A program made the position numbers and the translations under genes. Shown here piece by piece: positions 8,810 through 40,947 of a stretch of DNA of 57,148 nt. Positions within the stretch are counted from its first letter, which is position 1, and each line of letters begins with the position of its first letter. Location: assembly GCF_003334255.1 (NCBI RefSeq), contig NZ_QOWU01000032.1; one strand, given 5' to 3'. Source of the stretch: Escherichia coli. GTDB lineage: Bacteria > Pseudomonadota > Gammaproteobacteria > Enterobacterales > Enterobacteriaceae. The notes below the pieces were generated by a model. It was given only the letters and a program-made list of their open reading frames with translations. It ran no database searches and was not told the origin of the DNA.

Positions 8810-8892
8810 TGGCCTGATAAGACGCGTGAGCGTCGCATCAGGCATCGTTCACCATTGCCGGATGCGGCGTTAACGCCTTATCCGGCCTACGG
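8810..8892. repeat. REP element cluster (BIME-like) between ypfH and ypfN
   Basis: Inverted REP units: GCCTGATAAGACGCGTGAGCGTCGCATCAGGC and GCCGGATGCGGCGTTAACGCCTTATCCGGCCTAC. Confidence 0.55.
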
Positions 8893-25770: not shown

Positions 25771-26061
25771 TTTTTTTTAACTCTCACGCTTACCCTGAAT
25801 ATTCAGGGTAAGCAGTTTAGCTGCAATATATTAGTAAAGCTTATTACTGAGTTTGCGAATAATAAAAAAAGCAGTCTATATAATATCTCGATATTATTTT
25901 ATTTATATTCATGCGTTGCATATGAAAGTTTATGCACCACAGCGAATATCTCTCCATTCTTAGTGATCTACCTCACCTTTTAAACGCGCTTGCCGAATTT
26001 TGTTATTTACTCTGACGAAAAATTGTCACGATACACGAAAGTTTTTCACAGGCGGCGACTC

Positions 26062-26397
26062 ATGGATAAAGAACGCATCATTCAGGAATTTGTGCCCGGC
26101 AAACAGGTCACACTGGCGCATCTCATCGCGCATCCCGGTGAGGAACTGGCGAAGAAAATCGGCGTTCCGGATGCGGGCGCAATTGGCATTATGACGCTAA
26201 CTCCCGGCGAAACGGCGATGATCGCCGGTGATTTAGCGCTGAAAGCCGCTGATGTGCATATCGGTTTTCTCGACCGATTCAGCGGTGCATTGGTGATTTA
26301 TGGCTCGGTGGGCGCAGTAGAAGAAGCGTTATCACAAACCGTCAGCGGTTTAGGTCGCTTATTAAATTATACGCTTTGTGAAATGACCAAAAGTTAA
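26062..26397 (+). CDS. eutS: Ethanolamine utilisation microcompartment shell protein EutS
   Basis: 111-aa translation [46 protein letters not shown]... of BMC-domain type; first gene of the eut operon. ORF-track start at 25990 is an extension. Confidence 0.9.
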
Positions 26398-26409
26398 TAC
26401 GAGGCATTC

Positions 26410-26889
26410 ATGAAACGAATTGCGTTTGTGGGTAGCGTCGGGGCAGGAAAAACAACGTTATTTAATGCGTTGCAGGGGAATTATACCCTCGCCAGAAAAA
26501 CACAGGCCGTGGAATTTAATGATAAGGGCGATATTGATACGCCGGGTGAATATTTTAACCATCCCCGCTGGTATCACGCCTTAATTACCACGCTACAGGA
26601 TGTAGACATGCTGATCTATGTCCATGGCGCAAATGACCCGGAAAGTCGGTTGCCTGCCGGGTTGCTGGATATTGGCGTCAGCAAACGGCAAATCGCCGTC
26701 ATCAGTAAAACGGACATGCCAGATGCTGACGTCGCCGCAACGCGAAAGTTATTGCTTGAGACGGGTTTCGAAGAGCCGATTTTCGAGCTAAACAGCCACG
26801 ACCCGCAAAGCGTGCAGCAACTGGTGGATTATCTGGCATCTCTCACCAAACAGGAGGAAGCAGGTGAAAAAACTCATCACAGCGAATGA
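26410..26889 (+). CDS. eutP: Ethanolamine utilisation protein EutP (P-loop GTPase-like)
   Basis: 159-aa translation MKRIAFVGSVGAGKTTLFNALQG... with a Walker A motif; matches EutP. Confidence 0.9.
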   Translation: MKRIAFVGSVGAGKTTLFNALQGNYTLARKTQAVEFNDKGDIDTPGEYFNHPRWYHALITTLQDVDMLIYVHGANDPESRLPAGLLDIGVSKRQIAVISKTDMPDADVAATRKLLLETGFEEPIFELNSHDPQSVQQLVDYLASLTKQEEAGEKTHHSE

Positions 26890-27565
26890 TATTCGTGAAG
26901 CACACGCGCGCGGCGAACAGGCAATGTCCGTGGTTCTGCGCGCCAGCATTATTACCCCGGAAGCCCGTGAAGTGGCGGATCTACTGGGTTTTACCATCAC
27001 CGAATGTGATGAATCGATCCCGGTAACGGCGTCCGTGCCCGCCAGCGTGCCAGCCGACAAAACCGAAAGCCAGCGCATCCGCGAAACCATCATTGCCCAG
27101 CTGCCGGAAGGCCAGTTTACCGAAAGCCTGGTCGCACAGCTGATGGAAAAAGTGATGAAGGAAAAACAGTCGCTGGAGCAGGGCGCAATGCAGCCGAGCT
27201 TCAAATCGGTGACCGGCAAAGGCGGCATCAAAGTGATTGATGGCAGTAGCGTCAAGTTTGGTCGTTTCGACGGCGCAGAGCCGCATTGCGTGGGCTTGAC
27301 TGATCTTGTGACCGGAGACGACGGCAGCAGCATGGCCGCCGGTTTTATGCAGTGGGAGAACGCATTCTTCCCGTGGACCCTGAACTACGACGAAATCGAC
27401 ATGGTGCTGGAAGGGGAGCTGCATGTTCGCCACGAAGGCCAAACCATGATCGCCAAAGCAGGCGACGTGATGTTTATCCCGAAAGGCTCCAGCATCGAAT
27501 TTGGTACGACATCCAGCGTGAAATTCCTGTATGTCGCCTGGCCGGCTAACTGGCAATCCCTATGA
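26864..27565 (+). CDS. eutQ: Ethanolamine utilisation protein EutQ (cupin-type)
   Basis: 233-aa translation MKKLITANDIREAHARGEQAMSVVLRASIITPEAREVADLLGF...; overlaps the eutP 3' end by 26 nt. Confidence 0.9.
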   Translation: MKKLITANDIREAHARGEQAMSVVLRASIITPEAREVADLLGFTITECDESIPVTASVPASVPADKTESQRIRETIIAQLPEGQFTESLVAQLMEKVMKEKQSLEQGAMQPSFKSVTGKGGIKVIDGSSVKFGRFDGAEPHCVGLTDLVTGDDGSSMAAGFMQWENAFFPWTLNYDEIDMVLEGELHVRHEGQTMIAKAGDVMFIPKGSSIEFGTTSSVKFLYVAWPANWQSL

Positions 27566-28365
27566 AAGATTTCATCACCGAAGCATGGCTAAGAGCGAAC
27601 CATACGCTCAGCGAAGGCGCAGAGATCCATCTCCCTGCGGACAGTCGCCTGACGCCCTCTGCCCGGGAGTTGCTGGAAAGCCGCCATCTGCGCATCAAGT
27701 TTATTGACGAGCAGGGCCGCCTGTTTGTTGACGATGAACAGCAGCAGCCGCAGCCCGTTCATGGGCTGACCAGTAGCGATGAACATCCGCAGGCGTGCTG
27801 CGAACTGTGTCGCCAGCCGGTGGCAAAAAAGCCGGATACGCTGACTCACCTGTCGGCGGAAAAAATGGTCGCCAAAAGCGATCCGCGTCTGGGTTTTCGC
27901 GCGGTTCTCGACAGCACCATTGCGCTGGCAGTGTGGCTGCAAATTGAACTGGCGGAACCGTGGCAGCCGTGGCTGGCGGATATCCGTTCGCGTCTTGGCA
28001 ACATTATGCGCGCCGATGCGCTGGGGGAACCGCTGGGCTGCCAGGCGATTGTCGGGCTTTCTGACGAAGATCTGCATCGGCTTTCTCATCAGCCGCTGCG
28101 CTATCTCGACCACGATCATCTGGTGCCGGAAGCCAGCCACGGGCGCGATGCTGCGTTGCTCAATCTGCTACGCACCAAAGTGCGGGAAACCGAAACCGTA
28201 GCGGCGCAGGTCTTTATCACCCGCAGCTTTGAAGTATTACGCCCGGACATTTTGCAGGCGCTGAACCGCCTTTCGAGCACGGTCTACGTGATGATGATCC
28301 TGAGCGTAACGAAGCAGCCGCTAACGGTGAAGCAGATCCAACAACGACTGGGGGAAACGCAATGA
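27562..28365 (+). CDS. eutT: Ethanolamine utilisation cob(I)alamin adenosyltransferase EutT
   Basis: 267-aa translation [43 protein letters not shown]... with a Cys-rich motif ([12 protein letters not shown]); 4-nt overlap with eutQ. Confidence 0.9.
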
Positions 28366-29378
28366 TTATTGAACGTTGTCGTGAACTGGCGTTGCGAGCG
28401 CCCGCCAGAGTGGTTTTTCCGGATGCGTTAGACCAACGTGTGCTGAAAGCCGCGCAATATTTACATCAACAAGGTCTGGCAACGCCCATTCTGGTCGCCA
28501 ATCCGTTTGAACTTCGTCAGTTTGCGCTCAGTCACGGCGTGGCGATGGACGGGCTACAGGTGATTGATCCGCATGGCAACCTCGCAATGCGGGAAGAATT
28601 TGCTCATCGCTGGCTGGCCCGCGCGGGCGAAAAAACGCCGCCGGATGCGCTGGAAAAACTTACCGACCCTCTGATGTTCGCCGCAGCAATGGTCAGCGCC
28701 GGTAAAGCGGATGTCTGTATCGCGGGCAACCTCTCTTCCACGGCAAATGTGCTGCGTGCCGGATTACGCATTATCGGCTTGCAGCCAGGCTGTAAAACGC
28801 TCTCTTCCATTTTCCTGATGTTGCCACAGTACAGCGGCCCGGCGTTGGGCTTTGCCGATTGCAGCGTGGTGCCACAGCCGACGGCGGCGCAGCTGGCGGA
28901 TATCGCGCTTGCCAGTGCCGAAACCTGGCGCGCCATCACCGGAGAAGAGCCGCGCGTGGCGATGCTGTCGTTTTCCAGCAATGGTAGCGCCCGTCACCCC
29001 TGTGTTGCTAACGTCCAGCAGGCGACAGAAATCGTCCGTGAGCGCGCACCAAAGCTGGTGGTGGATGGCGAGTTACAGTTTGACGCCGCCTTCGTGCCGG
29101 AAGTGGCGGCGCAAAAAGCGCCTGCCAGCCCGCTACAGGGCAAGGCCAATGTGATGGTTTTTCCGTCGCTGGAAGCCGGAAATATTGGTTACAAAATCGC
29201 ACAACGACTCGGCGGATATCGTGCCGTCGGGCCACTGATACAAGGACTTGCCGCGCCGATGCACGATCTCTCTCGTGGTTGTAGCGTGCAGGAAATTATC
29301 GAGCTGGCGCTGGTGGCAGCTGTGCCGCGTCAGACAGAAGTGAACCGCGAAAGCAGTTTACAAACACTGGTTGAATGA
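28362..29378 (+). CDS. eutD: Phosphotransacetylase EutD
   Basis: 338-aa translation [48 protein letters not shown]... of PTA family; 4-nt overlap with eutT. Confidence 0.9.
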
Positions 29379-29416
29379 ACGGTCCCGTTCTGGACCCTGA
29401 TAAAGAGGAAAGCACA

Positions 29417-29710
29417 ATGGAAGCATTAGGAATGATCGAAACCCGGGGCCTGGTTGCACTGATTGAGGCTTCTGACGCGATGGTGAAAGCTGCGCGCGTC
29501 AAGCTGGTTGGTGTTAAGCAGATTGGCGGCGGCCTGTGTACTGCCATGGTTCGTGGTGATGTTGCAGCCTGTAAAGCCGCGACCGATGCAGGTGCCGCAG
29601 CGGCACAGCGTATCGGCGAGCTGGTATCTGTACACGTTATCCCGCGTCCGCACGGCGACCTGGAAGAAGTCTTCCCGATCGGCCTGAAAGGCGATAGCAG
29701 CAACCTGTAA
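29417..29710 (+). CDS. eutM: Ethanolamine utilisation microcompartment shell protein EutM
   Basis: 97-aa translation [55 protein letters not shown]..., canonical BMC hexamer; AGAGGA RBS upstream. ORF-track start at 29375 is an extension. Confidence 0.92.
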
Positions 29711-29816
29711 TCACCCTGTGTGACGTCGATTCGGGCGTCACGCTCTCTCCTTTTTCATTTTACCTTCTGCGGAGGGTAGGGGGAGCTTTTACCTGAAATA
29801 CGCCACGGAGGCGGGT

Positions 29817-30104
29817 ATGAAACTGGCAGTCGTCACTGGACAAATTGTTTGTACCGTACGCCATCACGGACTGGCGCATGACAAATTGCTGATGGTGGAA
29901 ATGATTGATCCACAAGGTAATCCTGACGGGCAATGCGCCGTCGCCATCGACAATATTGGCGCGGGAACCGGGGAGTGGGTGTTACTGGTGAGTGGCAGTT
30001 CCGCCCGCCAGGCGCATAAAAGCGAAACGTCACCGGTCGATCTGTGCGTGATTGGCATTGTCGATGAGGTGGTGTCTGGCGGTCAGGTAATTTTCCACAA
30101 ATAA
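29817..30104 (+). CDS. eutN: Microcompartment vertex protein EutN
   Basis: 95-aa translation MKLAVVTGQIVCTVRHHGLAHDKLLMVEMIDPQGNPDGQCAVAIDNIGAG..., EutN/CcmL family. Confidence 0.9.
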   Translation: MKLAVVTGQIVCTVRHHGLAHDKLLMVEMIDPQGNPDGQCAVAIDNIGAGTGEWVLLVSGSSARQAHKSETSPVDLCVIGIVDEVVSGGQVIFHK

Positions 30105-30115
30105 GGCAGAACATC

Positions 30116-31519
30116 ATGAATCAACAGGATATTGAACAGGTGGTGAAAGCGGTACTGCTGAAAATGCAAAGCAGTGACACGCCGTCCGCCGCCGTTCATG
30201 AGATGGGCGTTTTCGCGTCCCTGGATGACGCCGTTGCGGCAGCCAAAGTCGCCCAGCAAGGGTTAAAAAGCGTGGCAATGCGCCAGTTAGCCATTGCTGC
30301 CATTCGTGAAGCAGGCGAAAAACACGCCAGAGATTTAGCGGAACTTGCCGTCAGTGAAACCGGCATGGGGCGCGTTGAAGATAAATTTGCAAAAAACGTC
30401 GCTCAGGCGCGCGGCACACCAGGCGTTGAGTGCCTCTCTCCGCAAGTGCTGACTGGCGACAACGGCCTGACCCTAATTGAAAACGCACCCTGGGGCGTGG
30501 TGGCTTCGGTGACGCCTTCCACTAACCCGGCGGCAACCGTAATTAACAACGCCATCAGCCTGATTGCCGCGGGCAACAGCGTCATTTTTGCCCCGCATCC
30601 GGCGGCGAAAAAAGTCTCCCAGCGGGCGATTACGCTGCTCAACCAGGCGATTGTTGCCGCAGGTGGGCCGGAAAACTTACTGGTTACTGTGGCAAATCCG
30701 GATATCGAAACCGCGCAACGCTTGTTCAAGTTTCCGGGTATCGGCCTGCTGGTGGTAACCGGCGGCGAAGCGGTAGTAGAAGCGGCGCGTAAACACACCA
30801 ATAAACGTCTGATTGCCGCAGGCGCTGGCAACCCGCCGGTAGTGGTGGATGAAACCGCCGACCTCGCCCGTGCCGCTCAGTCCATCGTCAAAGGCGCTTC
30901 TTTCGATAACAACATCATTTGTGCCGACGAAAAGGTACTGATTGTTGTTGATAGCGTAGCCGATGAACTGATGCGTCTGATGGAAGGCCAGCACGCGGTG
31001 AAACTGACCGCAGAACAGGCGCAGCAGCTGCAACCGGTGTTGCTGAAAAATATCGACGAGCGCGGAAAAGGCACCGTCAGCCGTGACTGGGTTGGTCGCG
31101 ACGCAGGCAAAATCGCGGCGGCAATCGGCCTTAAAGTTCCGCAAGAAACGCGCCTGCTGTTTGTGGAAACCACCGCAGAACATCCGTTTGCCGTGACTGA
31201 ACTGATGATGCCGGTGTTGCCCGTCGTGCGCGTCGCCAACGTGGCGGATGCCATTGCGCTAGCGGTGAAACTGGAAGGCGGTTGCCACCACACGGCGGCA
31301 ATGCACTCGCGCAACATCGAAAACATGAACCAGATGGCGAATGCTATTGATACCAGCATTTTCGTTAAGAACGGACCGTGCATTGCCGGGCTGGGGCTGG
31401 GCGGGGAAGGCTGGACCACCATGACCATCACCACGCCAACCGGTGAAGGGGTAACCAGCGCGCGTACGTTTGTCCGTCTGCGTCGCTGTGTATTAGTCGA
31501 TGCGTTTCGCATTGTTTAA
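30116..31519 (+). CDS. eutE: Acetaldehyde dehydrogenase (acetylating) EutE
   Basis: 467-aa translation MNQQDIEQVVKAVLLKMQSSDTPSAAVHEMGVFASLDDAVAAAKVAQQG..., aldehyde dehydrogenase family with an N-terminal encapsulation-like helix. Confidence 0.92.
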   Translation: MNQQDIEQVVKAVLLKMQSSDTPSAAVHEMGVFASLDDAVAAAKVAQQGLKSVAMRQLAIAAIREAGEKHARDLAELAVSETGMGRVEDKFAKNVAQARGTPGVECLSPQVLTGDNGLTLIENAPWGVVASVTPSTNPAATVINNAISLIAAGNSVIFAPHPAAKKVSQRAITLLNQAIVAAGGPENLLVTVANPDIETAQRLFKFPGIGLLVVTGGEAVVEAARKHTNKRLIAAGAGNPPVVVDETADLARAAQSIVKGASFDNNIICADEKVLIVVDSVADELMRLMEGQHAVKLTAEQAQQLQPVLLKNIDERGKGTVSRDWVGRDAGKIAAAIGLKVPQETRLLFVETTAEHPFAVTELMMPVLPVVRVANVADAIALAVKLEGGCHHTAAMHSRNIENMNQMANAIDTSIFVKNGPCIAGLGLGGEGWTTMTITTPTGEGVTSARTFVRLRRCVLVDAFRIV

Positions 31520-31529
31520 GGAGTAACAG

Positions 31530-32366
31530 ATGGCGCACGACGAACAATGGCTCACCCCACGTCTGCAAACGGCGGCAACGCTGTGTAACCAGACGCCCGC
31601 CGCGACGGAATCTCCGCTGTGGCTGGGGGTGGATCTGGGCACCTGCGATGTGGTGTCGATGGTTGTCGACCGCGACGGTCAGCCAGTGGCGGTATGCCTC
31701 GACTGGGCCGATGTGGTTCGCGACGGCATCGTCTGGGATTTCTTCGGCGCTGTCACCATTGTTCGTCGCCATCTCGACACGCTCGAGCAGCAATTCGGTC
31801 GTCGTTTTAGCCATGCGGCGACTTCATTTCCTCCAGGTACGGACCCGCGTATTTCCATCAACGTGCTGGAATCTGCCGGACTGGAAGTGAGCCATGTGCT
31901 GGATGAGCCAACCGCAGTTGCGGATCTGCTGCAACTGGACAACGCCGGTGTAGTGGATATCGGCGGCGGCACTACCGGCATTGCCATCGTGAAAAAGGGC
32001 AAGGTGACGTACTCGGCGGATGAAGCCACCGGCGGACATCACATCTCTCTGACTCTCGCCGGAAATCGCCGTATTTCGCTGGAAGAGGCGGAGCAGTACA
32101 AGCGCGGTCACGGTGAAGAGATTTGGCCTGCGGTGAAACCGGTGTACGAAAAAATGGCGGACATTGTCGCCCGGCATATTGAAGGGCAGGGCATTACTGA
32201 TTTATGGCTGGCGGGCGGCTCTTGTATGCAACCGGGCGTGGCGGAACTGTTTCGCAAACAATTCCCGGCGTTACAGGTGCATTTACCGCAGCACAGTTTG
32301 TTTATGACCCCGCTGGCGATCGCCAGTAGTGGGCGAGAGAAAGCGGAGGGGCTATATGCAAAATGA
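31530..32366 (+). CDS. eutJ: Ethanolamine utilisation chaperonin-like protein EutJ
   Basis: 278-aa translation MAHDEQWLTPRLQTAATLCNQTPAATESPLWLGVDLGTCDVVSMVVD..., actin/Hsp70-like ATPase fold. Confidence 0.9.
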   Translation: MAHDEQWLTPRLQTAATLCNQTPAATESPLWLGVDLGTCDVVSMVVDRDGQPVAVCLDWADVVRDGIVWDFFGAVTIVRRHLDTLEQQFGRRFSHAATSFPPGTDPRISINVLESAGLEVSHVLDEPTAVADLLQLDNAGVVDIGGGTTGIAIVKKGKVTYSADEATGGHHISLTLAGNRRISLEEAEQYKRGHGEEIWPAVKPVYEKMADIVARHIEGQGITDLWLAGGSCMQPGVAELFRKQFPALQVHLPQHSLFMTPLAIASSGREKAEGLYAK

Positions 32367-33543
32367 ATTGCAGACCGCGCTCTTTCAGGCGTTCGATACC
32401 CTGAATCTGCAACGGGTAAAAACATTTAGCGTTCCACCGGTGACGCTTTGCGGTCCGGGCTCGGTGAGCAGTTGCGGACAGCAAGCGCAAACGCGTGGGC
32501 TGAAACATCTGTTCGTGATGGCAGACAGCTTTTTGCATCAGGCAGGGATGACCGCCGGGCTGACGCGTAGCCTGACCGTTAAAGGTATCGCCATGACGCT
32601 CTGGCCATGTCCGGTGGGCGAACCGTGCATTACCGACGTGTGTGCAGCCGTGGCGCAGTTGCGTGAGTCAGGCTGTGATGGGGTGATCGCGTTTGGCGGC
32701 GGCTCGGTGCTGGATGCGGCGAAAGCCGTGACGTTGCTGGTGACGAACCCGGATAGCACGCTGGCAGAGATGTCAGAAACCAGCGTTCTGCAACCGCGCT
32801 TGCCGCTGATTGCCATTCCAACTACCGCCGGAACCGGCTCTGAAACCACCAATGTAACGGTGATTATCGACGCGGTGAGCGGGCGCAAGCAGGTGTTAGC
32901 CCATGCCTCGCTGATGCCGGATGTGGCGATCCTCGACGCCGCATTGACCGAAGGTGTGCCGTCGCATGTCACGGCGATGACCGGCATTGATGCGTTAACC
33001 CATGCCATTGAAGCATACAGCGCCCTGAACGCTACACCGTTTACCGACAGTCTGGCGATTGGTGCCATTGCGATGATTGGCAAATCGCTGCCGAAAGCGG
33101 TGGGCTACGGTCACGACCTTGCCGCGCGCGAGAGCATGTTGCTGGCTTCATGTATGGCGGGAATGGCGTTTTCCAGTGCGGGTCTTGGGTTGTGCCACGC
33201 GATGGCGCATCAGCCGGGCGCGGCGCTGCATATTCCGCACGGTCTCGCGAACGCCATGTTGCTGCCAACGGTGATGGAATTTAACCGGATGGTTTGTCGT
33301 GAACGCTTTAGTCAGATTGGTCGGGCACTGCGAACTAAAAAATCCGACGATCGTGACGCTATTAACGCGGTAAGTGAGCTGATTGCGGAAGTTGGGATTG
33401 GTAAACGACTGGGCGATGTTGGTGCGACATCTGCGCATTACGGCGCATGGGCGCAGGCCGCGCTGGAAGATATTTGTCTGCGCAGTAACCCGCGTACCGC
33501 CAGCCTGGAGCAGATTGTCGGCCTGTACGCAGCGGCGCAATAA
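32356..33543 (+). CDS. eutG: Ethanolamine utilisation alcohol dehydrogenase EutG
   Basis: 395-aa translation MQNELQTALFQAFDTLNLQRVKTFSVPPVTLCGPGSVSSCGQQAQ..., iron-containing ADH family; overlaps eutJ by 11 nt. ORF-track start at 32329 is an extension. Confidence 0.9.
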   Translation: MQNELQTALFQAFDTLNLQRVKTFSVPPVTLCGPGSVSSCGQQAQTRGLKHLFVMADSFLHQAGMTAGLTRSLTVKGIAMTLWPCPVGEPCITDVCAAVAQLRESGCDGVIAFGGGSVLDAAKAVTLLVTNPDSTLAEMSETSVLQPRLPLIAIPTTAGTGSETTNVTVIIDAVSGRKQVLAHASLMPDVAILDAALTEGVPSHVTAMTGIDALTHAIEAYSALNATPFTDSLAIGAIAMIGKSLPKAVGYGHDLAARESMLLASCMAGMAFSSAGLGLCHAMAHQPGAALHIPHGLANAMLLPTVMEFNRMVCRERFSQIGRALRTKKSDDRDAINAVSELIAEVGIGKRLGDVGATSAHYGAWAQAALEDICLRSNPRTASLEQIVGLYAAAQ

Positions 33544-33545
33544 AT

Positions 33546-33729
<184 letters not shown>

Positions 33730-33759
33730 ATAAATAACAACTAACAGGGAGTAAAGGCG

Positions 33760-34986
33760 ATGGGAATTAACGAAATCATCATGTACATCATGATGTTCTT
33801 TATGCTGATAGCTGCCGTAGACAGGATCCTGTCGCAGTTCGGCGGTTCTGCTCGTTTCCTCGGTAAGTTCGGTAAAAGTATCGAAGGATCAGGCGGTCAG
33901 TTCGAAGAAGGCTTTATGGCAATGGGCGCACTGGGCCTGGCGATGGTCGGTATGACCGCGCTGGCACCGGTACTGGCTCACGTTCTCGGGCCGGTAATTA
34001 TTCCGGTTTACGAAATGCTCGGCGCTAACCCATCGATGTTCGCCGGAACACTGCTGGCGTGCGATATGGGCGGCTTCTTCCTCGCCAAAGAGCTGGCGGG
34101 CGGCGACGTAGCCGCGTGGCTATACTCTGGGTTAATTCTCGGGTCGATGATGGGGCCAACGATTGTGTTTTCCATTCCGGTGGCGCTCGGCATTATCGAA
34201 CCTTCTGACCGTCGTTATCTGGCGCTCGGCGTGCTGGCGGGCATTGTGACCATTCCGATTGGTTGTATCGCTGGTGGTCTGGTTGCTATGTACTCCGGTG
34301 TGCAGATCAACGGCCAGCCGGTGGAATTCACTTTCGCCCTGATCCTGATGAACATGATCCCGGTGATCATTGTTGCGATTCTGGTGGCGCTGGGGCTGAA
34401 ATTCATCCCGGAAAAAATGATCAACGGCTTCCAGATCTTCGCCAAATTCCTCGTTGCATTGATCACCCTCGGTCTTGCCGCTGCGGTAGTGAAATTCCTG
34501 CTTGGCTGGGAACTGATCCCCGGTCTGGATCCTATCTTTATGGCCCCTGGCGATAAACCCGGTGAGGTGATGCGCGCCATTGAAGTTATCGGTTCTATCT
34601 CCTGCGTTCTGTTAGGGGCGTATCCGATGGTGCTGCTGCTGACTCGCTGGTTTGAAAAACCGCTGATGAGCGTCGGTAAAGTACTGAATATGAACAACAT
34701 CGCGGCAGCCGGCATGGTGGCAACGCTTGCCAACAACATCCCGATGTTCGGCATGATGAAGCAGATGGATACCCGCGGCAAAGTCATCAACTGCGCCTTC
34801 GCCGTTTCCGCTGCTTTCGCCCTGGGCGACCACTTAGGCTTCGCCGCTGCCAACATGAACGCCATGATCTTCCCGATGATTGTCGGCAAGTTGATCGGCG
34901 GCGTAACGGCGATTGGCGTGGCGATGATGCTGGTGCCAAAAGAAGACGCGACCGCGACTAAAACCGAAGCGGAGGCACAATCGTGA
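33760..34986 (+). CDS. eutH: Ethanolamine permease EutH
   Basis: 408-aa highly hydrophobic multi-pass membrane protein (MGINEIIMYIMMFFMLIAAVDRILSQFGG...); matches EutH. Confidence 0.92.
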   Translation: MGINEIIMYIMMFFMLIAAVDRILSQFGGSARFLGKFGKSIEGSGGQFEEGFMAMGALGLAMVGMTALAPVLAHVLGPVIIPVYEMLGANPSMFAGTLLACDMGGFFLAKELAGGDVAAWLYSGLILGSMMGPTIVFSIPVALGIIEPSDRRYLALGVLAGIVTIPIGCIAGGLVAMYSGVQINGQPVEFTFALILMNMIPVIIVAILVALGLKFIPEKMINGFQIFAKFLVALITLGLAAAVVKFLLGWELIPGLDPIFMAPGDKPGEVMRAIEVIGSISCVLLGAYPMVLLLTRWFEKPLMSVGKVLNMNNIAAAGMVATLANNIPMFGMMKQMDTRGKVINCAFAVSAAFALGDHLGFAAANMNAMIFPMIVGKLIGGVTAIGVAMMLVPKEDATATKTEAEAQS

Positions 34987-36386
34987 ACACTCGCCAGCTA
35001 TTGAGCGTCGGTATCGATATCGGCACCACCACCACCCAGGTGATTTTCTCCCGGCTGGAGCTGGTTAACCGTGCGGCGGTGTCGCAGGTGCCGCGCTACG
35101 AATTCATTAAACGCGAAATTAGCTGGCAAAGTCCGGTGTTCTTTACCCCTGTCGATAAACAGGGCGGTTTAAAAGAAGCGGAACTGAAAACCTTAATACT
35201 CGAGCAATATCATGCTGCGGGTATTGAGCCGGAAAGCGTTGATTCTGGTGCCATCATCATCACCGGTGAAAGCGCGAAAACCCGCAATGCTCGCCCGGCG
35301 GTGATGGCGCTCTCTCAGTCGCTGGGCGATTTTGTCGTTGCCAGCGCCGGGCCGCACCTCGAATCCGTGATCGCCGGTCACGGAGCCGGGGCACAAACCC
35401 TTTCTGAACAACGGCTGTGTCGGGTACTGAATATCGACATCGGCGGTGGCACCGCGAACTACGCCCTGTTCGATGCCGGAAAAATCAGCGGCACTGCCTG
35501 CCTCAACGTCGGTGGTCGCCTGCTGGAAACCGACAGCCACGGGCGCGTGGTTTACGCTCATAAACCGGGGCAGATGATTGTGGATGAGTGCTTCGGTGCA
35601 GGCACCGACGCCCGTTCGCTGACCGGCGCGCAGCTGGTGCAGGTGACCCGGCGGATGGCAGAACTGATTGTCGAAGTGATTGACGGAACGCTCTCACCGC
35701 TCGCGCAGGCATTGATGCAAACCGGTTTGCTGCCCGCAGGTGTTACGCCCGAAATCATTACGCTTTCTGGCGGCGTGGGCGAATGTTATCGCCACCAGCC
35801 CGCCTACCCGTTCTGTTTTGCCGATATTGGCCCGCTGCTGGCAACTGCGCTGCATGATCATCCGCGCCTGCGTGAGATGAACGTACAGTTTCCGGCGCAA
35901 ACCGTGCGCGCCACGGTGATTGGCGCGGGCGCGCATACCCTTTCGCTCTCTGGCAGCACAATCTGGCTTGAGGGCGTACAACTGCCGCTGCGCAATTTGC
36001 CGGTGGCGATCCCGATTGATGAAACGGATCTGGTGGGGGCCTGGCAACAGGCGCTGATTCAGCTGGATCTTGATCCCAAAACTGACGCGTACGTGCTGGC
36101 GCTTCCCGCCTCGCTGCCTGTGCGTTACGCCGCGGTACTGACGGTCATCAACGCGTTGGTCGATTTCGTCGCGCGTTTTCCGAATCCGCATCCCCTGCTG
36201 GTGGTGGCCGGGCAGGACTTTGGTAAAGCTCTGGGCATGTTGTTGCGCCCACAGCTACAACAACTCCCGTTGGCAGTCATTGACGAAGTGATTGTCCGCG
36301 CGGGGGACTATATCGACATTGGTACGCCTCTTTTTGGCGGATCGGTTGTGCCGGTGACGGTGAAATCACTCGCATTTCCTTCCTGA
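34983..36386 (+). CDS. eutA: Ethanolamine ammonia-lyase reactivase EutA
   Basis: 467-aa translation MNTRQLLSVGIDIGTTTTQVIFSRLELVNRAAVSQVPRYEF...; 4-nt overlap with eutH. eutB follows directly, with no intervening prophage. Confidence 0.92.
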   Translation: MNTRQLLSVGIDIGTTTTQVIFSRLELVNRAAVSQVPRYEFIKREISWQSPVFFTPVDKQGGLKEAELKTLILEQYHAAGIEPESVDSGAIIITGESAKTRNARPAVMALSQSLGDFVVASAGPHLESVIAGHGAGAQTLSEQRLCRVLNIDIGGGTANYALFDAGKISGTACLNVGGRLLETDSHGRVVYAHKPGQMIVDECFGAGTDARSLTGAQLVQVTRRMAELIVEVIDGTLSPLAQALMQTGLLPAGVTPEIITLSGGVGECYRHQPAYPFCFADIGPLLATALHDHPRLREMNVQFPAQTVRATVIGAGAHTLSLSGSTIWLEGVQLPLRNLPVAIPIDETDLVGAWQQALIQLDLDPKTDAYVLALPASLPVRYAAVLTVINALVDFVARFPNPHPLLVVAGQDFGKALGMLLRPQLQQLPLAVIDEVIVRAGDYIDIGTPLFGGSVVPVTVKSLAFPS

Positions 36387-36397
36387 GGGAACGACTT

Positions 36398-37759
36398 ATG
36401 AAACTAAAGACCACATTGTTCGGCAATGTATATCAGTTTAAGGATGTAAAAGAGGTGCTGGCTAAAGCCAACGAACTGCGTTCGGGGGATGTGCTGGCGG
36501 GCGTCGCAGCGGCAAGCTCACAGGAGCGCGTGGCGGCAAAGCAGGTGTTGTCGGAAATGACCGTAGCGGACATCCGCAATAATCCGGTGATTGCCTATGA
36601 AGATGACTGCGTGACGCGGCTGATTCAGGACGATGTTAACGAAACGGCCTACAACCAGATTAAAAACTGGAGCATCAGCGAACTGCGTGAGTATGTGCTG
36701 AGCGATGAAACCAGCGTGGACGACATTGCCTTTACCCGCAAAGGGCTGACCTCGGAAGTGGTCGCGGCGGTAGCGAAGATTTGCTCCAACGCGGACCTGA
36801 TCTACGGCGCGAAGAAAATGCCGGTAATCAAAAAGGCCAATACCACCATCGGTATTCCGGGCACCTTTAGCGCCCGTTTGCAGCCAAATGACACCCGTGA
36901 CGACGTGCAAAGTATCGCCGCGCAAATCTACGAAGGGCTTTCCTTCGGGGTGGGCGATGCGGTGATCGGCGTTAACCCGGTGACTGACGACGTGGAAAAC
37001 TTAAGCCGCGTGTTGGATACCATCTATGGCGTGATCGACAAATTCAACATCCCAACTCAGGGCTGTGTACTGGCGCACGTCACCACCCAGATCGAAGCGA
37101 TCCGTCGTGGCGCACCGGGCGGGCTGATTTTCCAGAGTATCTGTGGCAGCGAAAAAGGGCTGAAAGAGTTTGGCGTGGAGCTGGCGATGCTCGACGAAGC
37201 GCGCGCAGTGGGCGCGGAGTTCAACCGTATCGCCGGGGAAAACTGCCTCTACTTCGAAACCGGACAAGGCTCTGCGCTATCCGCTGGCGCTAACTTCGGC
37301 GCAGACCAGGTAACGATGGAAGCACGTAACTACGGGCTGGCGCGTCATTACGATCCGTTTATCGTCAACACCGTGGTCGGCTTTATTGGGCCGGAGTATC
37401 TCTACAACGACCGCCAGATTATCCGTGCTGGCTTAGAAGATCACTTTATGGGCAAGCTGAGCGGCATCTCTATGGGCTGTGACTGCTGTTATACCAACCA
37501 CGCTGACGCTGACCAGAACCTCAACGAAAACCTGATGATCCTGCTCGCCACCGCAGGCTGCAACTACATCATGGGGATGCCGCTGGGTGATGACATCATG
37601 CTCAACTACCAGACCACCGCATTCCACGATACCGCCACTGTGCGTCAGTTACTCAACCTGCGCCCGTCACCGGAGTTTGAACGCTGGCTGGAAAGCATGG
37701 GCATTATGGCAAACGGTCGCCTGACCAAACGGGCGGGCGATCCGTCACTGTTCTTCTGA
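36398..37759 (+). CDS. eutB: Ethanolamine ammonia-lyase heavy chain EutB
   Basis: 453-aa translation MKLKTTLFGNVYQFKDVKEVLAKANELRSGDVLAGVAAASSQERVAAKQVL...; matches EutB. Confidence 0.95.
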   Translation: MKLKTTLFGNVYQFKDVKEVLAKANELRSGDVLAGVAAASSQERVAAKQVLSEMTVADIRNNPVIAYEDDCVTRLIQDDVNETAYNQIKNWSISELREYVLSDETSVDDIAFTRKGLTSEVVAAVAKICSNADLIYGAKKMPVIKKANTTIGIPGTFSARLQPNDTRDDVQSIAAQIYEGLSFGVGDAVIGVNPVTDDVENLSRVLDTIYGVIDKFNIPTQGCVLAHVTTQIEAIRRGAPGGLIFQSICGSEKGLKEFGVELAMLDEARAVGAEFNRIAGENCLYFETGQGSALSAGANFGADQVTMEARNYGLARHYDPFIVNTVVGFIGPEYLYNDRQIIRAGLEDHFMGKLSGISMGCDCCYTNHADADQNLNENLMILLATAGCNYIMGMPLGDDIMLNYQTTAFHDTATVRQLLNLRPSPEFERWLESMGIMANGRLTKRAGDPSLFF

Positions 37760-37779
37760 TGACGCGGAGATAACATATC

Positions 37780-38667
37780 ATGGATCAAAAACAGATTGAA
37801 GAAATTGTACGCAGCGTGATGGCGTCAATGGGACAAGCGGCCCCCGCGCCGTCAGAAGCAAAGTGCGCCACCACCAACTGTGCGGCACCGGTGACCTCGG
37901 AAAGCTGTGCGCTGGATTTAGGTTCCGCTGAAGCAAAAGCGTGGATTGGTGTTGAAAATCCGCATCGCGCAGACGTATTAACAGAACTGCGCCGCAGCAC
38001 CGTGGCCCGCGTTTGTACCGGTCGTGCCGGTCCGCGTCCACGTACGCAGGCGCTGCTGCGTTTCCTGGCCGATCACTCTCGTTCGAAAGATACCGTACTG
38101 AAAGAAGTGCCGGAAGAGTGGGTGAAAGCGCAGGGCTTGCTGGAAGTACGCTCTGAAATTAGCGACAAAAATCTCTACCTGACTCGCCCGGATATGGGCC
38201 GCCGCCTGTGTGCAGAAGCTGTTGAAGCGCTGAAAGCGCAGTGTGTTGCCAATCCGGACGTACAGGTCGTTATTTCTGATGGCCTGTCAACTGATGCGAT
38301 CACCGTGAACTACGAAGAGATCCTGCCACCGCTGATGGCGGGCCTGAAACAGGCCGGGCTGAAAGTCGGTACACCATTCTTTGTTCGTTATGGTCGCGTG
38401 AAGATTGAAGATCAGATCGGTGAGATCCTCGGCGCGAAAGTAGTGATCCTGCTGGTGGGCGAACGTCCGGGGTTGGGTCAGTCAGAAAGCCTCTCCTGCT
38501 ACGCCGTTTACTCGCCGCGTATGGCGACCACCGTTGAGGCCGATCGCACCTGTATCTCTAACATTCACCAGGGCGGCACGCCGCCGGTTGAAGCCGCAGC
38601 CGTCATTGTGGATTTGGCGAAACGTATGCTGGAGCAGAAAGCATCCGGCATCAACATGACCCGATAA
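37780..38667 (+). CDS. eutC: Ethanolamine ammonia-lyase light chain EutC
   Basis: 295-aa translation [29 protein letters not shown]... with an N-terminal encapsulation-peptide-like helix; matches EutC. Confidence 0.95.
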
Positions 38668-38676
38668 GGAGGCATC

Positions 38677-39336
38677 ATGCCAGCTTTAGATTTGATTCGA
38701 CCGTCTGTCACCGCTATGCGGGTGATTGCCTCCGTTAACGCCGATTTTGCGCGTGAACTGAAATTGCCGCCGCATATTCGTAGCCTCGGTCTGATTTCTG
38801 CCGACTCCGATGACGTCACCTACATTGCCGCTGATGAAGCGACCAAGCAGGCGATGGTGGAAGTGGTGTATGGCCGCTCGCTATATGCGGGCGCTGCACA
38901 CGGCCCGTCACCGACTGCCGGTGAAGTGCTGATTATGCTTGGTGGGCCAAACCCGGCGGAAGTGCGTGCAGGTCTGGATGCGATGATTGCGCATATTGAA
39001 AATGGCGCAGCTTTCCAGTGGGCTAATGACGCGCAAGATACGGCATTCCTGGCACATGTAGTTTCGCGTACCGGTTCTTATCTCTCATCAACCGCCGGGA
39101 TCACGCTTGGCGATCCGATGGCGTATCTGGTGGCACCGCCGCTGGAAGCGACCTATGGCATTGATGCAGCCCTGAAGTCTGCCGACGTACAGCTGGCGAC
39201 CTATGTCCCGCCACCGTCTGAAACCAACTACTCGGCAGCATTTTTAACCGGTAGCCAGGCAGCGTGTAAAGCAGCCTGTAACGCCTTTACCGATGCAGTG
39301 CTGGAAATCGCGCGTAATCCAATCCAGCGTGCGTAA
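38677..39336 (+). CDS. eutL: Microcompartment shell protein EutL (tandem BMC domains)
   Basis: 219-aa translation [55 protein letters not shown]...; matches EutL. Confidence 0.92.
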
Positions 39337-39348
39337 CGGAGGTTGCCG

Positions 39349-39849
39349 ATGATCAATGCACTGGGATTGCTGGAAGTGGACGGCATGGTCGCCGCGATAG
39401 ATGCAGCGGATGCCATGCTCAAAGCAGCTAACGTTCGTCTGCTCAGTCACGAAGTGCTTGACCCTGGTCGCTTAACGCTGGTGGTGGAAGGCGATCTGGC
39501 GGCGTGTCGTGCGGCGCTGGACGCAGGTTGTGCTGCCGCGATGCGTACCGGGCGTGTCATCAGCCGCAAGGAGATCGGTCGGCCAGACGATGACACCCAG
39601 TGGCTGGTTACTGGCTTTAACCGCCAGCCGAAGCAACCCGTAAGGGAACCCGACGCGCCAGTTATCGTCGCGGAATCTGCTGACGAGTTGTTGGCGCTGT
39701 TAACATCAGTACGTCAGGGAATGACGGCAGGAGAAGTGGCTGCCCACTTTGGCTGGCCGCTGGAAAAAGCCAGAAATGCGCTCGAACAGCTCTTTTCTGC
39801 CGGGACGTTACGTAAACGCAGTAGTCGTTATCGTCTCAAGCCCCATTAA
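39349..39849 (+). CDS. eutK: Microcompartment shell protein EutK (BMC domain with C-terminal nucleic-acid-binding-like extension)
   Basis: 166-aa translation MINALGLLEVDGMVAAIDAADAMLKAANVRLLSHEVLDPGRLTLVVEGDLAACRAA...; ORF-track start at 39343 is 2 codons earlier. Confidence 0.9.
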   Translation: MINALGLLEVDGMVAAIDAADAMLKAANVRLLSHEVLDPGRLTLVVEGDLAACRAALDAGCAAAMRTGRVISRKEIGRPDDDTQWLVTGFNRQPKQPVREPDAPVIVAESADELLALLTSVRQGMTAGEVAAHFGWPLEKARNALEQLFSAGTLRKRSSRYRLKPH

Positions 39850-39894
39850 CCTGTCGGAGGTGCCGGGTGTCCTACAACACCCGGCATTAACATC

Positions 39895-40947
39895 ATGAAA
39901 AAGACCCGTACAGCCAATTTGCACCATCTTTATCATGAACCCTTACCCGAAAACCTGAAGCTCACGCCGAAGGTCGAAGTGGATAATGTTCATCAACGAC
40001 AGACAACGGATGTCTATGAACATGCTTTAACGATTACCGCCTGGCAGCAGATTTACGATCAGCTGCATCCGGGCAAGTTTCATGGTGAATTTACGGAAAT
40101 TCTACTCGATGATATTCAGGTTTTTCGTGAATACACCGGTCTGGCGCTGCGTCAGTCGTGCCTGGTCTGGCCGAACTCGTTCTGGTTTGGCATTCCGGCG
40201 ACGCGCGGTGAGCAGGGATTTATCGGTTCGCAATGTCTGGGAAGCGCGGAAATCGCCACCCGCCCTGGTGGCACTGAATTTGAACTGAGCACGCCGGATG
40301 ATTACACGATCCTGGGCGTGGTGCTTTCTGAAGATGTCATCACCCGGCAGGCTAACTTTTTGCATAACCCGGATCGGGTATTACATATGTTGCGTAACCA
40401 GTCGGCGCTGGAAGTGAAAGAGCAGCATAAAGCCGCGCTGTGGGGCTTTGTCCAACAGGCGCTGGCGACGTTTTGCGAGAATCCGGAAAATCTCCATCAG
40501 CCTGCAGTGCGAAAAGTGCTGGGGGATAATTTGCTAATGGCGATGGGGGCCATGCTGGAAGAAGCGCAACCAATGGTGACGGCGGAAAGCATCAGTCATC
40601 AGAGTTACCGTCGATTGCTTTCCCGCGCCCGTGAATATGTGCTGGAAAACATGTCCGAACCGGTGACGGTGCTGGATTTGTGTAATCAACTGCATGTCAG
40701 CCGCCGCACGCTACAAAACGCGTTTCACGCTATTTTAGGCATTGGCCCGAACGCGTGGCTGAAACGCATTCGCCTGAACGCCGTACGCCGCGAACTGATA
40801 AGTCCGTGGTCGCAAAGTATGACGGTAAAAGACGCCGCCATGCAGTGGGGATTCTGGCATCTGGGGCAATTTGCCACGGATTACCAGCAGCTGTTTTCCG
40901 AGAAGCCGTCACTGACGCTGCATCAGCGGATGCGGGAGTGGGGGTGA
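39895..40947 (+). CDS. eutR: AraC-family transcriptional activator of the eut operon, EutR
   Basis: 350-aa translation with a C-terminal AraC-type HTH (...[40 protein letters not shown]...); last gene of the operon. Confidence 0.92.

Follow-up and report, generated by a model that had tools for sequence, protein, structure and literature searches.

An uninterrupted 17-gene eut operon with an empty CPZ-55 site in Escherichia coli contig NZ_QOWU01000032.1

The 57,148-nt stretch of Escherichia coli DNA analysed here over its whole length (contig NZ_QOWU01000032.1 of assembly GCF_003334255.1, hereafter the window) carries a full set of genes for the utilization of ethanolamine (eut). Seventeen consecutive genes on the plus strand, at 26062-40947, follow each other in the order eutS-P-Q-T-D-M-N-E-J-G-H-A-B-C-L-K-R, as read from the list of open reading frames (ORFs) and from a base-by-base comparison with the RefSeq-annotated E. 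coli G1/2. Judged by its sequence, the region is almost certainly the canonical chromosomal EUT1-type eut operon of E. coli, lying at the maeB/hemF position in the ancestral uninterrupted state, and ethanolamine use is predicted for it. The finding is real and had been read correctly in a preliminary description made from the letters of the sequence. It is also already known: as that description itself had said, the system is well described rather than novel, and the operon, its interruption by a prophage, the target site and the phenotype can all be found in the literature.

The seventeen genes of the operon

The preliminary description had reported the operon to be complete and free of frameshifts, and this held up for every gene. 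Each of the 17 frames is full length, with the annotated start and a terminal stop codon, at coordinates that equal those annotated in RefSeq for G1/2; a search of the 17 eut genes for lesions such as a frameshift, an internal stop, a truncated match or an altered start found none. Moreover, all 17 products score above the curated NCBIfam cut-off of their own Eut-specific model and match essentially the whole profile. The genes are listed below, with the NCBIfam bit score versus the curated cut-off in brackets (BMC, bacterial microcompartment).

26062..26397, + strand: eutS, BMC-domain shell protein, 111 aa (NF012012, 247 versus 123 bits, full length; identical to K-12)
26410..26889, + strand: eutP, EutP/PduV-family GTPase-like protein, annotated as acetate kinase, 159 aa (NF012011, 350 versus 258 bits)
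26864..27565, + strand: eutQ, cupin-type protein, annotated as acetate kinase, 233 aa, GTG start (NF012001, 502 versus 193 bits)
27562..28365, + strand: eutT, corrinoid (cob(I)alamin) adenosyltransferase, 267 aa (NF011595 equivalog, 571 versus 226 bits)
28362..29378, + strand: eutD, phosphotransacetylase, 338 aa (NF007233, 411 versus 310 bits; TIGR00651, 331 versus 311)
29417..29710, + strand: eutM, major hexameric BMC shell protein, 97 aa (NF012018, 213 versus 133 bits)
29817..30104, + strand: eutN, pentameric vertex-type shell protein of the EutN/CcmL family, 95 aa (NF011992, 210 versus 118 bits)
30116..31519, + strand: eutE, CoA-acylating acetaldehyde dehydrogenase, 467 aa (NF011927, 738 versus 403 bits)
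31530..32366, + strand: eutJ, putative chaperone of DnaK/actin fold, 278 aa (NF011660, 403 versus 182 bits)
32356..33543, + strand: eutG, iron-type alcohol dehydrogenase, 395 aa (NF011998, 888 versus 556 bits)
33760..34986, + strand: eutH, ethanolamine permease/facilitator, 408 aa (NF011665, 874 versus 574 bits)
34983..36386, + strand: eutA, ethanolamine ammonia-lyase reactivase, 467 aa, GTG start (NF007991, 1066 versus 799 bits)
36398..37759, + strand: eutB, ethanolamine ammonia-lyase large (alpha) subunit, 453 aa (NF011649, 665 versus 554 bits; identical to K-12)
37780..38667, + strand: eutC, ethanolamine ammonia-lyase small (beta) subunit, 295 aa (NF003971, 340 versus 230 bits)
38677..39336, + strand: eutL, tandem-BMC-domain (trimeric) shell protein, 219 aa (NF011934, 400 versus 198 bits; TIGR04502, 334 versus 300)
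39349..39849, + strand: eutK, BMC-domain shell protein with a C-terminal extension, 166 aa (NF012010, 362 versus 218 bits)
39895..40947, + strand: eutR, AraC-family activator of the operon, 350 aa (NF007522, 789 versus 319 bits)

The frame of eutQ overlaps that of eutP by 26 nt, and its coordinates are likewise those annotated in G1/2. The model NF003971 covers only residues 52-294 of EutC, which leaves residues 1-51 as an N-terminal extension outside the catalytic-domain model. Read from its sequence, this extension is an encapsulation peptide with a predicted role in targeting; EutC1-20 serves as a BMC-targeting tag (PMC11334477). The N-terminus of EutE, MNQQDIEQVVKAVLLKMQ, resembles such a peptide. 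Many antisense ORFs of at least 80 aa lie inside the eut genes and were taken as chance frames in GC-rich coding DNA.

As far as can be judged from sequence, every defining feature by which an enterobacterial EUT1 locus can be recognised is present. The signature enzyme is B12-dependent, and its two subunits EutB and EutC are encoded in intact frames. The shell proteins comprise the hexameric EutM, EutS and EutK, the trimeric EutL and the pentameric EutN, all with full-length matches. EutE, EutG and EutD as the aldehyde and cofactor core, and the reactivase EutA and the adenosyltransferase EutT as the proteins of B12 maintenance, all score above their cut-offs; the cobalamin adenosyltransferase of its own that had been ascribed to the operon is thus borne out by the equivalog match of EutT. 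Putative N-terminal encapsulation peptides can be read on the cargo proteins EutC and EutE. The last gene encodes the AraC-type regulator EutR, and not the EutVW two-component system with riboswitch of Firmicutes. The operon is located between maeB upstream and hemF/amiA downstream, as in MG1655 and every E. coli examined, and both its gene order and its locus equal those of MG1655 apart from a prophage.

The eutA-eutB junction and the strain background

The eutA gene ends with a TGA at 36384-36386 and eutB starts at 36398, so that the two genes are separated by a spacer of 11 nt, just as had been described at the outset. The last bases of eutA form the site that is occupied in K-12:

36379..36386, + strand: unoccupied attachment core CTTCCTGA, 8 bp, the last eutA bases including the TGA, present as a single copy (junction comparison)

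In K-12 (MG1655, NC_000913.3, and the K-12-type strain JME67) the alignment to the window breaks exactly after the eutA stop. The cryptic prophage that the preliminary description had mentioned for K-12, CPZ-55, indeed follows directly upon the eutA TGA in both strains; the insert comprises 6.79 kb with intZ and yffL-yffS and is oriented opposite to eut. One copy of CTTCCTGA stands at each end of CPZ-55 in JME67 and one copy in the window, and an imperfect extension of the repeat, of about 20 nt, is found on the eutB side. The window sequence 36347-36410 consists of the K-12 eutA-side sequence up to the TGA, followed by the K-12 eutB-side sequence. No CPZ-55 DNA (intZ, yffL-yffS) was found in the window, and BLAST against MG1655 2527000-2603000 gave two collinear blocks that skip the prophage. 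The comparison with K-12 thereby confirmed the empty site, and the junction is not identical to that of K-12. The same 8-bp core and target duplication have been published (PMC6379469).

A second occupant of the site was found in the pig isolate 1604D011, where a 12.4-kb integrase-bearing element lies between eutA and eutB at the same CTTCCTGA core, with the core duplicated at both ends. From these sequences, the core can be read as the integration point of CPZ-55 and of related integrase-bearing elements. The eutA-eutB site has been termed a prophage insertion hot spot in uropathogenic E. coli (UPEC) (PMC6652756), and the element of 1604D011 agrees with this. The latter is related to CPZ-55 but larger, and carries yffS-like and terminase-small-subunit-like genes and a 2.2-kb hypothetical gene.

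The distribution of the two forms was followed in a reference set of 5426 complete E. coli genomes, with 2 kb across the eutA-eutB junction as the query. The query was matched in 5424 genomes, and 4965 of the 5426 (~91.5%) gave a continuous match. Full-length CPZ-55 is present in 213 complete genomes, the sampled carriers being largely K-12 laboratory derivatives, and about 200 further genomes match part of the prophage, most often its integrase end, at 82-86% identity. For the species, an uninterrupted junction is the norm and the prophage-split K-12 form the exception.

An empty site could also be secondary, if a K-12-like ancestor had lost CPZ-55 or a relative of it by precise integrase-mediated excision with regeneration of the bacterial attachment site (attB). 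The flanking DNA is near-identical to K-12, with three single-nucleotide polymorphisms (SNPs) over the 14.9-kb operon, and at a recurrent hot spot with an exact 8-bp core precise excision would be scarless (PMC6652756). We nevertheless consider such a loss very improbable, given that the site is empty in ~91% of E. coli across all lineages, that full-length CPZ-55 is limited to the 213 genomes mentioned, and that natural isolates whose annotated Eut accessions are those of K-12, such as LR-03, are also devoid of the prophage. Both histories leave an identical sequence in the window, and a site that was never occupied would be the parsimonious one.

Since the junction is empty in most E. coli, it is by itself weak evidence on the strain background, for which it had first been used. 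Indeed, a laboratory K-12 W3110 stock with an intact eut operon is on record (PMC11334477), and the missing prophage alone is therefore no proof of a non-K-12 origin. The non-K-12 background that had been claimed is nevertheless supported by the SNPs, the ends formed by insertion sequences (IS) and the identity to wild isolates, even though the window is still 99.96% identical to MG1655. In stretches of 25 kb the window is 100% identical to the German human faecal isolates G1/2, G6/7 and G8, which have genomes of 5.3 Mb. The identity to MG1655 holds over 57 kb, with 17 SNPs and a 1-nt indel in an A-tract; nine of the 17 SNPs cluster in hyfA, at 152-307 (156 nt), which suggests a small recombined or divergent patch beside an IS insertion.

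Both ends of the window depart from the MG1655 locus. Positions 1-75 gave no alignment to MG1655; G1/2 matches the window from base 1, and the annotation of G1/2 places a transposase of the IS4 family (IS421) directly upstream, between hyfB and hyfA, so that the window begins inside an IS end. The hyfA gene is annotated with 603 nt in G1/2 versus 618 nt in K-12. At the other end the last 77 bases (57072-57148, GGTGATGCTGCCAACTTACTGAT...) diverge from yfeS of G1/2 and MG1655 and run on into the IS1 copy (IS1A) located within yfeS of strain LR-03; yfeS of the window is therefore disrupted. The window probably represents a contig assembled from short reads and ending at IS copies on both sides; its source would be a wild strain near to but distinct from K-12.

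These data bear on a further explanation, according to which the window would come from a K-12 laboratory derivative cured of CPZ-55, like W3110 eut+ or the engineered BW25113 eut+. The identity to MG1655 over 57 kb would fit such an origin, and K-12 stocks in which the operon is intact are on record (PMC11334477). We regard its probability as negligible and have rejected it in view of the 17 SNPs and the indel, with nine SNPs clustered in hyfA, of the two IS termini without an alignment at the MG1655 locus, and of the 100% identity to the faecal isolates G1/2, G6/7 and G8, which extends to a private EutA allele.

Differences from K-12 and intergenic regions

Over its 14.9 kb the operon differs from that of K-12 by three nucleotides, which account for EutP I124, one synonymous SNP in eutA, and EutA D275Y. 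In direct comparison thirteen Eut proteins (S, Q, T, D, M, N, E, J, G, H, B, C and L) are identical to those of K-12, and EutK and EutR have the same RefSeq protein accessions in G1/2 and strain LR-03. Residue 124 of EutP is I in the window and M in K-12, and I124 is also found in the unrelated strain 1604D011. EutA D275Y is due to a T at 35805, in codon 275, where K-12 encodes D. The exact 71-mer with the Y275 codon is present in three of the 5426 complete genomes only, namely G1/2, G6/7 and G8. This lineage-private substitution is the sole element of the operon that departs from the textbook.

Two intergenic regions have to be considered along with these differences:

25771..26061, + strand: maeB-eutS intergenic region, with the putative main eut promoter PI (sequence comparison; published descriptions of PI and PII)
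33544..33759, + strand: eutG-eutH spacer with two ~100-nt copies of a repetitive extragenic palindromic sequence/bacterial interspersed mosaic element (REP/BIME) (sequence; Rfam naRNA4)

By analogy with the descriptions of PI and PII given in a figure legend of PMC7617246, we infer that the maeB-eutS region would be the site of PI, the promoter that depends on EutR and on ethanolamine plus B12.

A few observations weigh against the reading of the region as a canonical operon with predicted ethanolamine use. A scan for the sigma-70 consensus found no match in 25771..26061. Residue 275 of EutA is Y in the window and D in all other E. coli examined, and Tyr is absent from the eight commonest residues at this position among 119 distant homologues.

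With respect to the promoter, such a miss in a consensus scan is expected for an activator-dependent promoter. Moreover, the sigma-70 scan gave fewer matches than shuffled sequences and the terminator scan no more than shuffled sequences, so both scans are uninformative. At 25857-25863, some 200 nt ahead of eutS, the window has a run of seven A residues (A7) where MG1655 and G1/2 have eight (A8). We considered whether this might be a private promoter lesion and ruled it out, as exact matches to the A7 form are present in 1627 complete genomes including O157:H7, which makes it an ordinary natural polymorphism.

With respect to EutA, it would be conceivable that the operon is intact but weakened, with D275Y impairing the reactivase, so that the lyase would be rapidly inactivated and ethanolamine poorly used. 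The restriction of the Y275 71-mer to G1/2, G6/7 and G8 is in favour of this, as is the spectrum of residues at position 275: in an alignment of 17 enterobacterial EutA sequences the position is occupied by D, S or A in the other 16, and in the 119 distant representatives (33-55% identity), where D, N, S, E, A, K, G or a gap is found, a bulky aromatic residue does not figure among the common ones. The same alignments, however, place residue 275 in a variable loop (270-278), between the invariant motifs SGGV and (Y/F)GDIG, in which homologues tolerate many residues or a gap. The Y275 allele has been retained in at least three gut isolates that were sequenced independently of each other, and no other lesion was found in the operon. 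The variability at 275 in close and distant homologues rules out that D275Y hits a conserved EutA residue. Taken together, a weakened reactivase appears improbable to us, and we see an equally small chance that D275Y would alter reactivase activity or the interaction with EutBC and so give an attenuated or modified Eut phenotype in a K-12-like operon. Given the variable position, the substitution is probably neutral.

The genes had also been described as tightly spaced or overlapping throughout. This is true of 14 of the 16 junctions, which span -26 to +45 nt, and does not apply to eutM-eutN (106 nt) and eutG-eutH (216 nt). The gap between eutM and eutN (29711-29816) contains two stable hairpins right after the eutM stop, at 29718-29743 and ~29745-29785, with a predicted fold of -43.5 kcal/mol and a z-score of -2.7. 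On the basis of this fold, the hairpins could stabilise the transcript or bring about partial termination downstream of the gene for the major shell protein. In the eutG-eutH spacer, Rfam naRNA4 (REP-derived) matches at 33598-33679 with 71.8 bits, and the z-score of the fold is -3.4. The corresponding spacer of strain 1604D011 has 116 nt, consistent with one REP/BIME copy, and the copy number of this element within the operon therefore differs between strains.

A Rfam scan of the whole window for riboswitches, including the cobalamin riboswitch, and for other RNA families gave only REP-derived naRNA4 matches within the operon. Elsewhere in the window, naRNA4 (REP-derived) was matched at 8811-8887 between ypfH and ypfN (92.7 bits), and the small RNA ES036/CssrF at 56466-56508 on the minus strand between cysM and yfeS (40.9 bits versus a gathering score of 37.6).

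Predicted function and relation to known systems

The steps by which the operon would work follow what is established for the eut systems of Salmonella and E. coli. EutR together with ethanolamine and adenosylcobalamin would activate the promoter that precedes eutS, and the expression of eutR would be kept up by a weak internal promoter. Ethanolamine would enter via EutH. A shell would be assembled from the hexamers of EutS, EutM and EutK, the trimer EutL and the pentamer EutN, and would enclose EutBC, targeted by the N-terminal peptide of EutC, along with EutE, EutD and EutG. Within this shell EutBC with adenosyl-B12 would split ethanolamine into ammonia and acetaldehyde, while EutA would reactivate the lyase and EutT would adenosylate cobalamin, both keeping the B12 cofactor active. 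Acetaldehyde would be converted by EutE to acetyl-CoA or by EutG to ethanol with recycling of NAD, EutD would make acetyl-phosphate, and the volatile and toxic aldehyde would be retained by the shell. To our knowledge, E. coli is incapable of de novo B12 synthesis, and the pathway therefore needs an external corrinoid.

Strain BW25113, which carries the prophage, does not use ethanolamine, and scarless removal of the prophage leads to growth with ethanolamine as nitrogen source (PMC11334477). Neither induction of eutB nor microcompartments were observed in BW25113 (PMC7617246). The operon of the window is two amino acids apart from the prophage-cured K-12 operon, one in EutP and one in EutA. 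By this analogy we strongly infer that the operon would function in the source strain, in line with the preliminary description, which had called it probably functional. In the window, transcription from eutS to eutR would be free of the oppositely oriented CPZ-55 genes, and ethanolamine use is therefore predicted, at least as a nitrogen source.

For the source genome this means that ethanolamine catabolism, a fitness trait in the gut and the urinary tract, should be expected, in contrast to models built on MG1655 or BW25113. The window also provides a naturally occurring K-12-type eut operon that lacks CPZ-55. The hot spot for prophages, the duplication of the 8-bp target and the effect of the insertion on function have already been published (PMC6379469, PMC6652756, PMC7617246, PMC11334477), and beyond annotation the observation carries little weight and raises no new question.

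The uninterrupted eutSPQTDMNEJGHABCLKR arrangement with an EutR activator is shared with Salmonella enterica LT2 and with E. coli Nissle 1917, UPEC and enterohaemorrhagic E. coli (EHEC), from which the window differs in species- and strain-level sequence divergence only; its EutA is about 90% identical to that of Salmonella. Salmonella makes B12 anaerobically, whereas E. coli depends on external corrinoid. The 17-gene operon of LT2 is that of Kofoid et al. 1999, as cited in PMC7617246, and for the operons of LT2, Nissle 1917, UPEC and EHEC microcompartments and growth on ethanolamine plus B12 have been observed in experiments (PMC7617246, PMC6652756).

The eut region of K-12 MG1655 (b2437-b2462) has the same 17 genes in the same order at the same maeB-hemF position and differs in three nucleotides. 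Unlike the window, it has the 6.79-kb CPZ-55 right after the eutA stop, flanked by the duplication of CTTCCTGA, and encodes M124 in EutP and D275 in EutA. The organisation is the same in the engineered BW25113 eut+ and the laboratory W3110 eut+ (Jallet et al. 2024, PMC11334477), which have a K-12-type operon without the prophage, as the window does; this prophage-free operon supports growth on ethanolamine as nitrogen source (PMC11334477). The window is distinguished from these strains by EutP M124I, EutA D275Y, one synonymous SNP and an A7 instead of an A8 tract, and by its location in a wild-type, non-K-12 genome.

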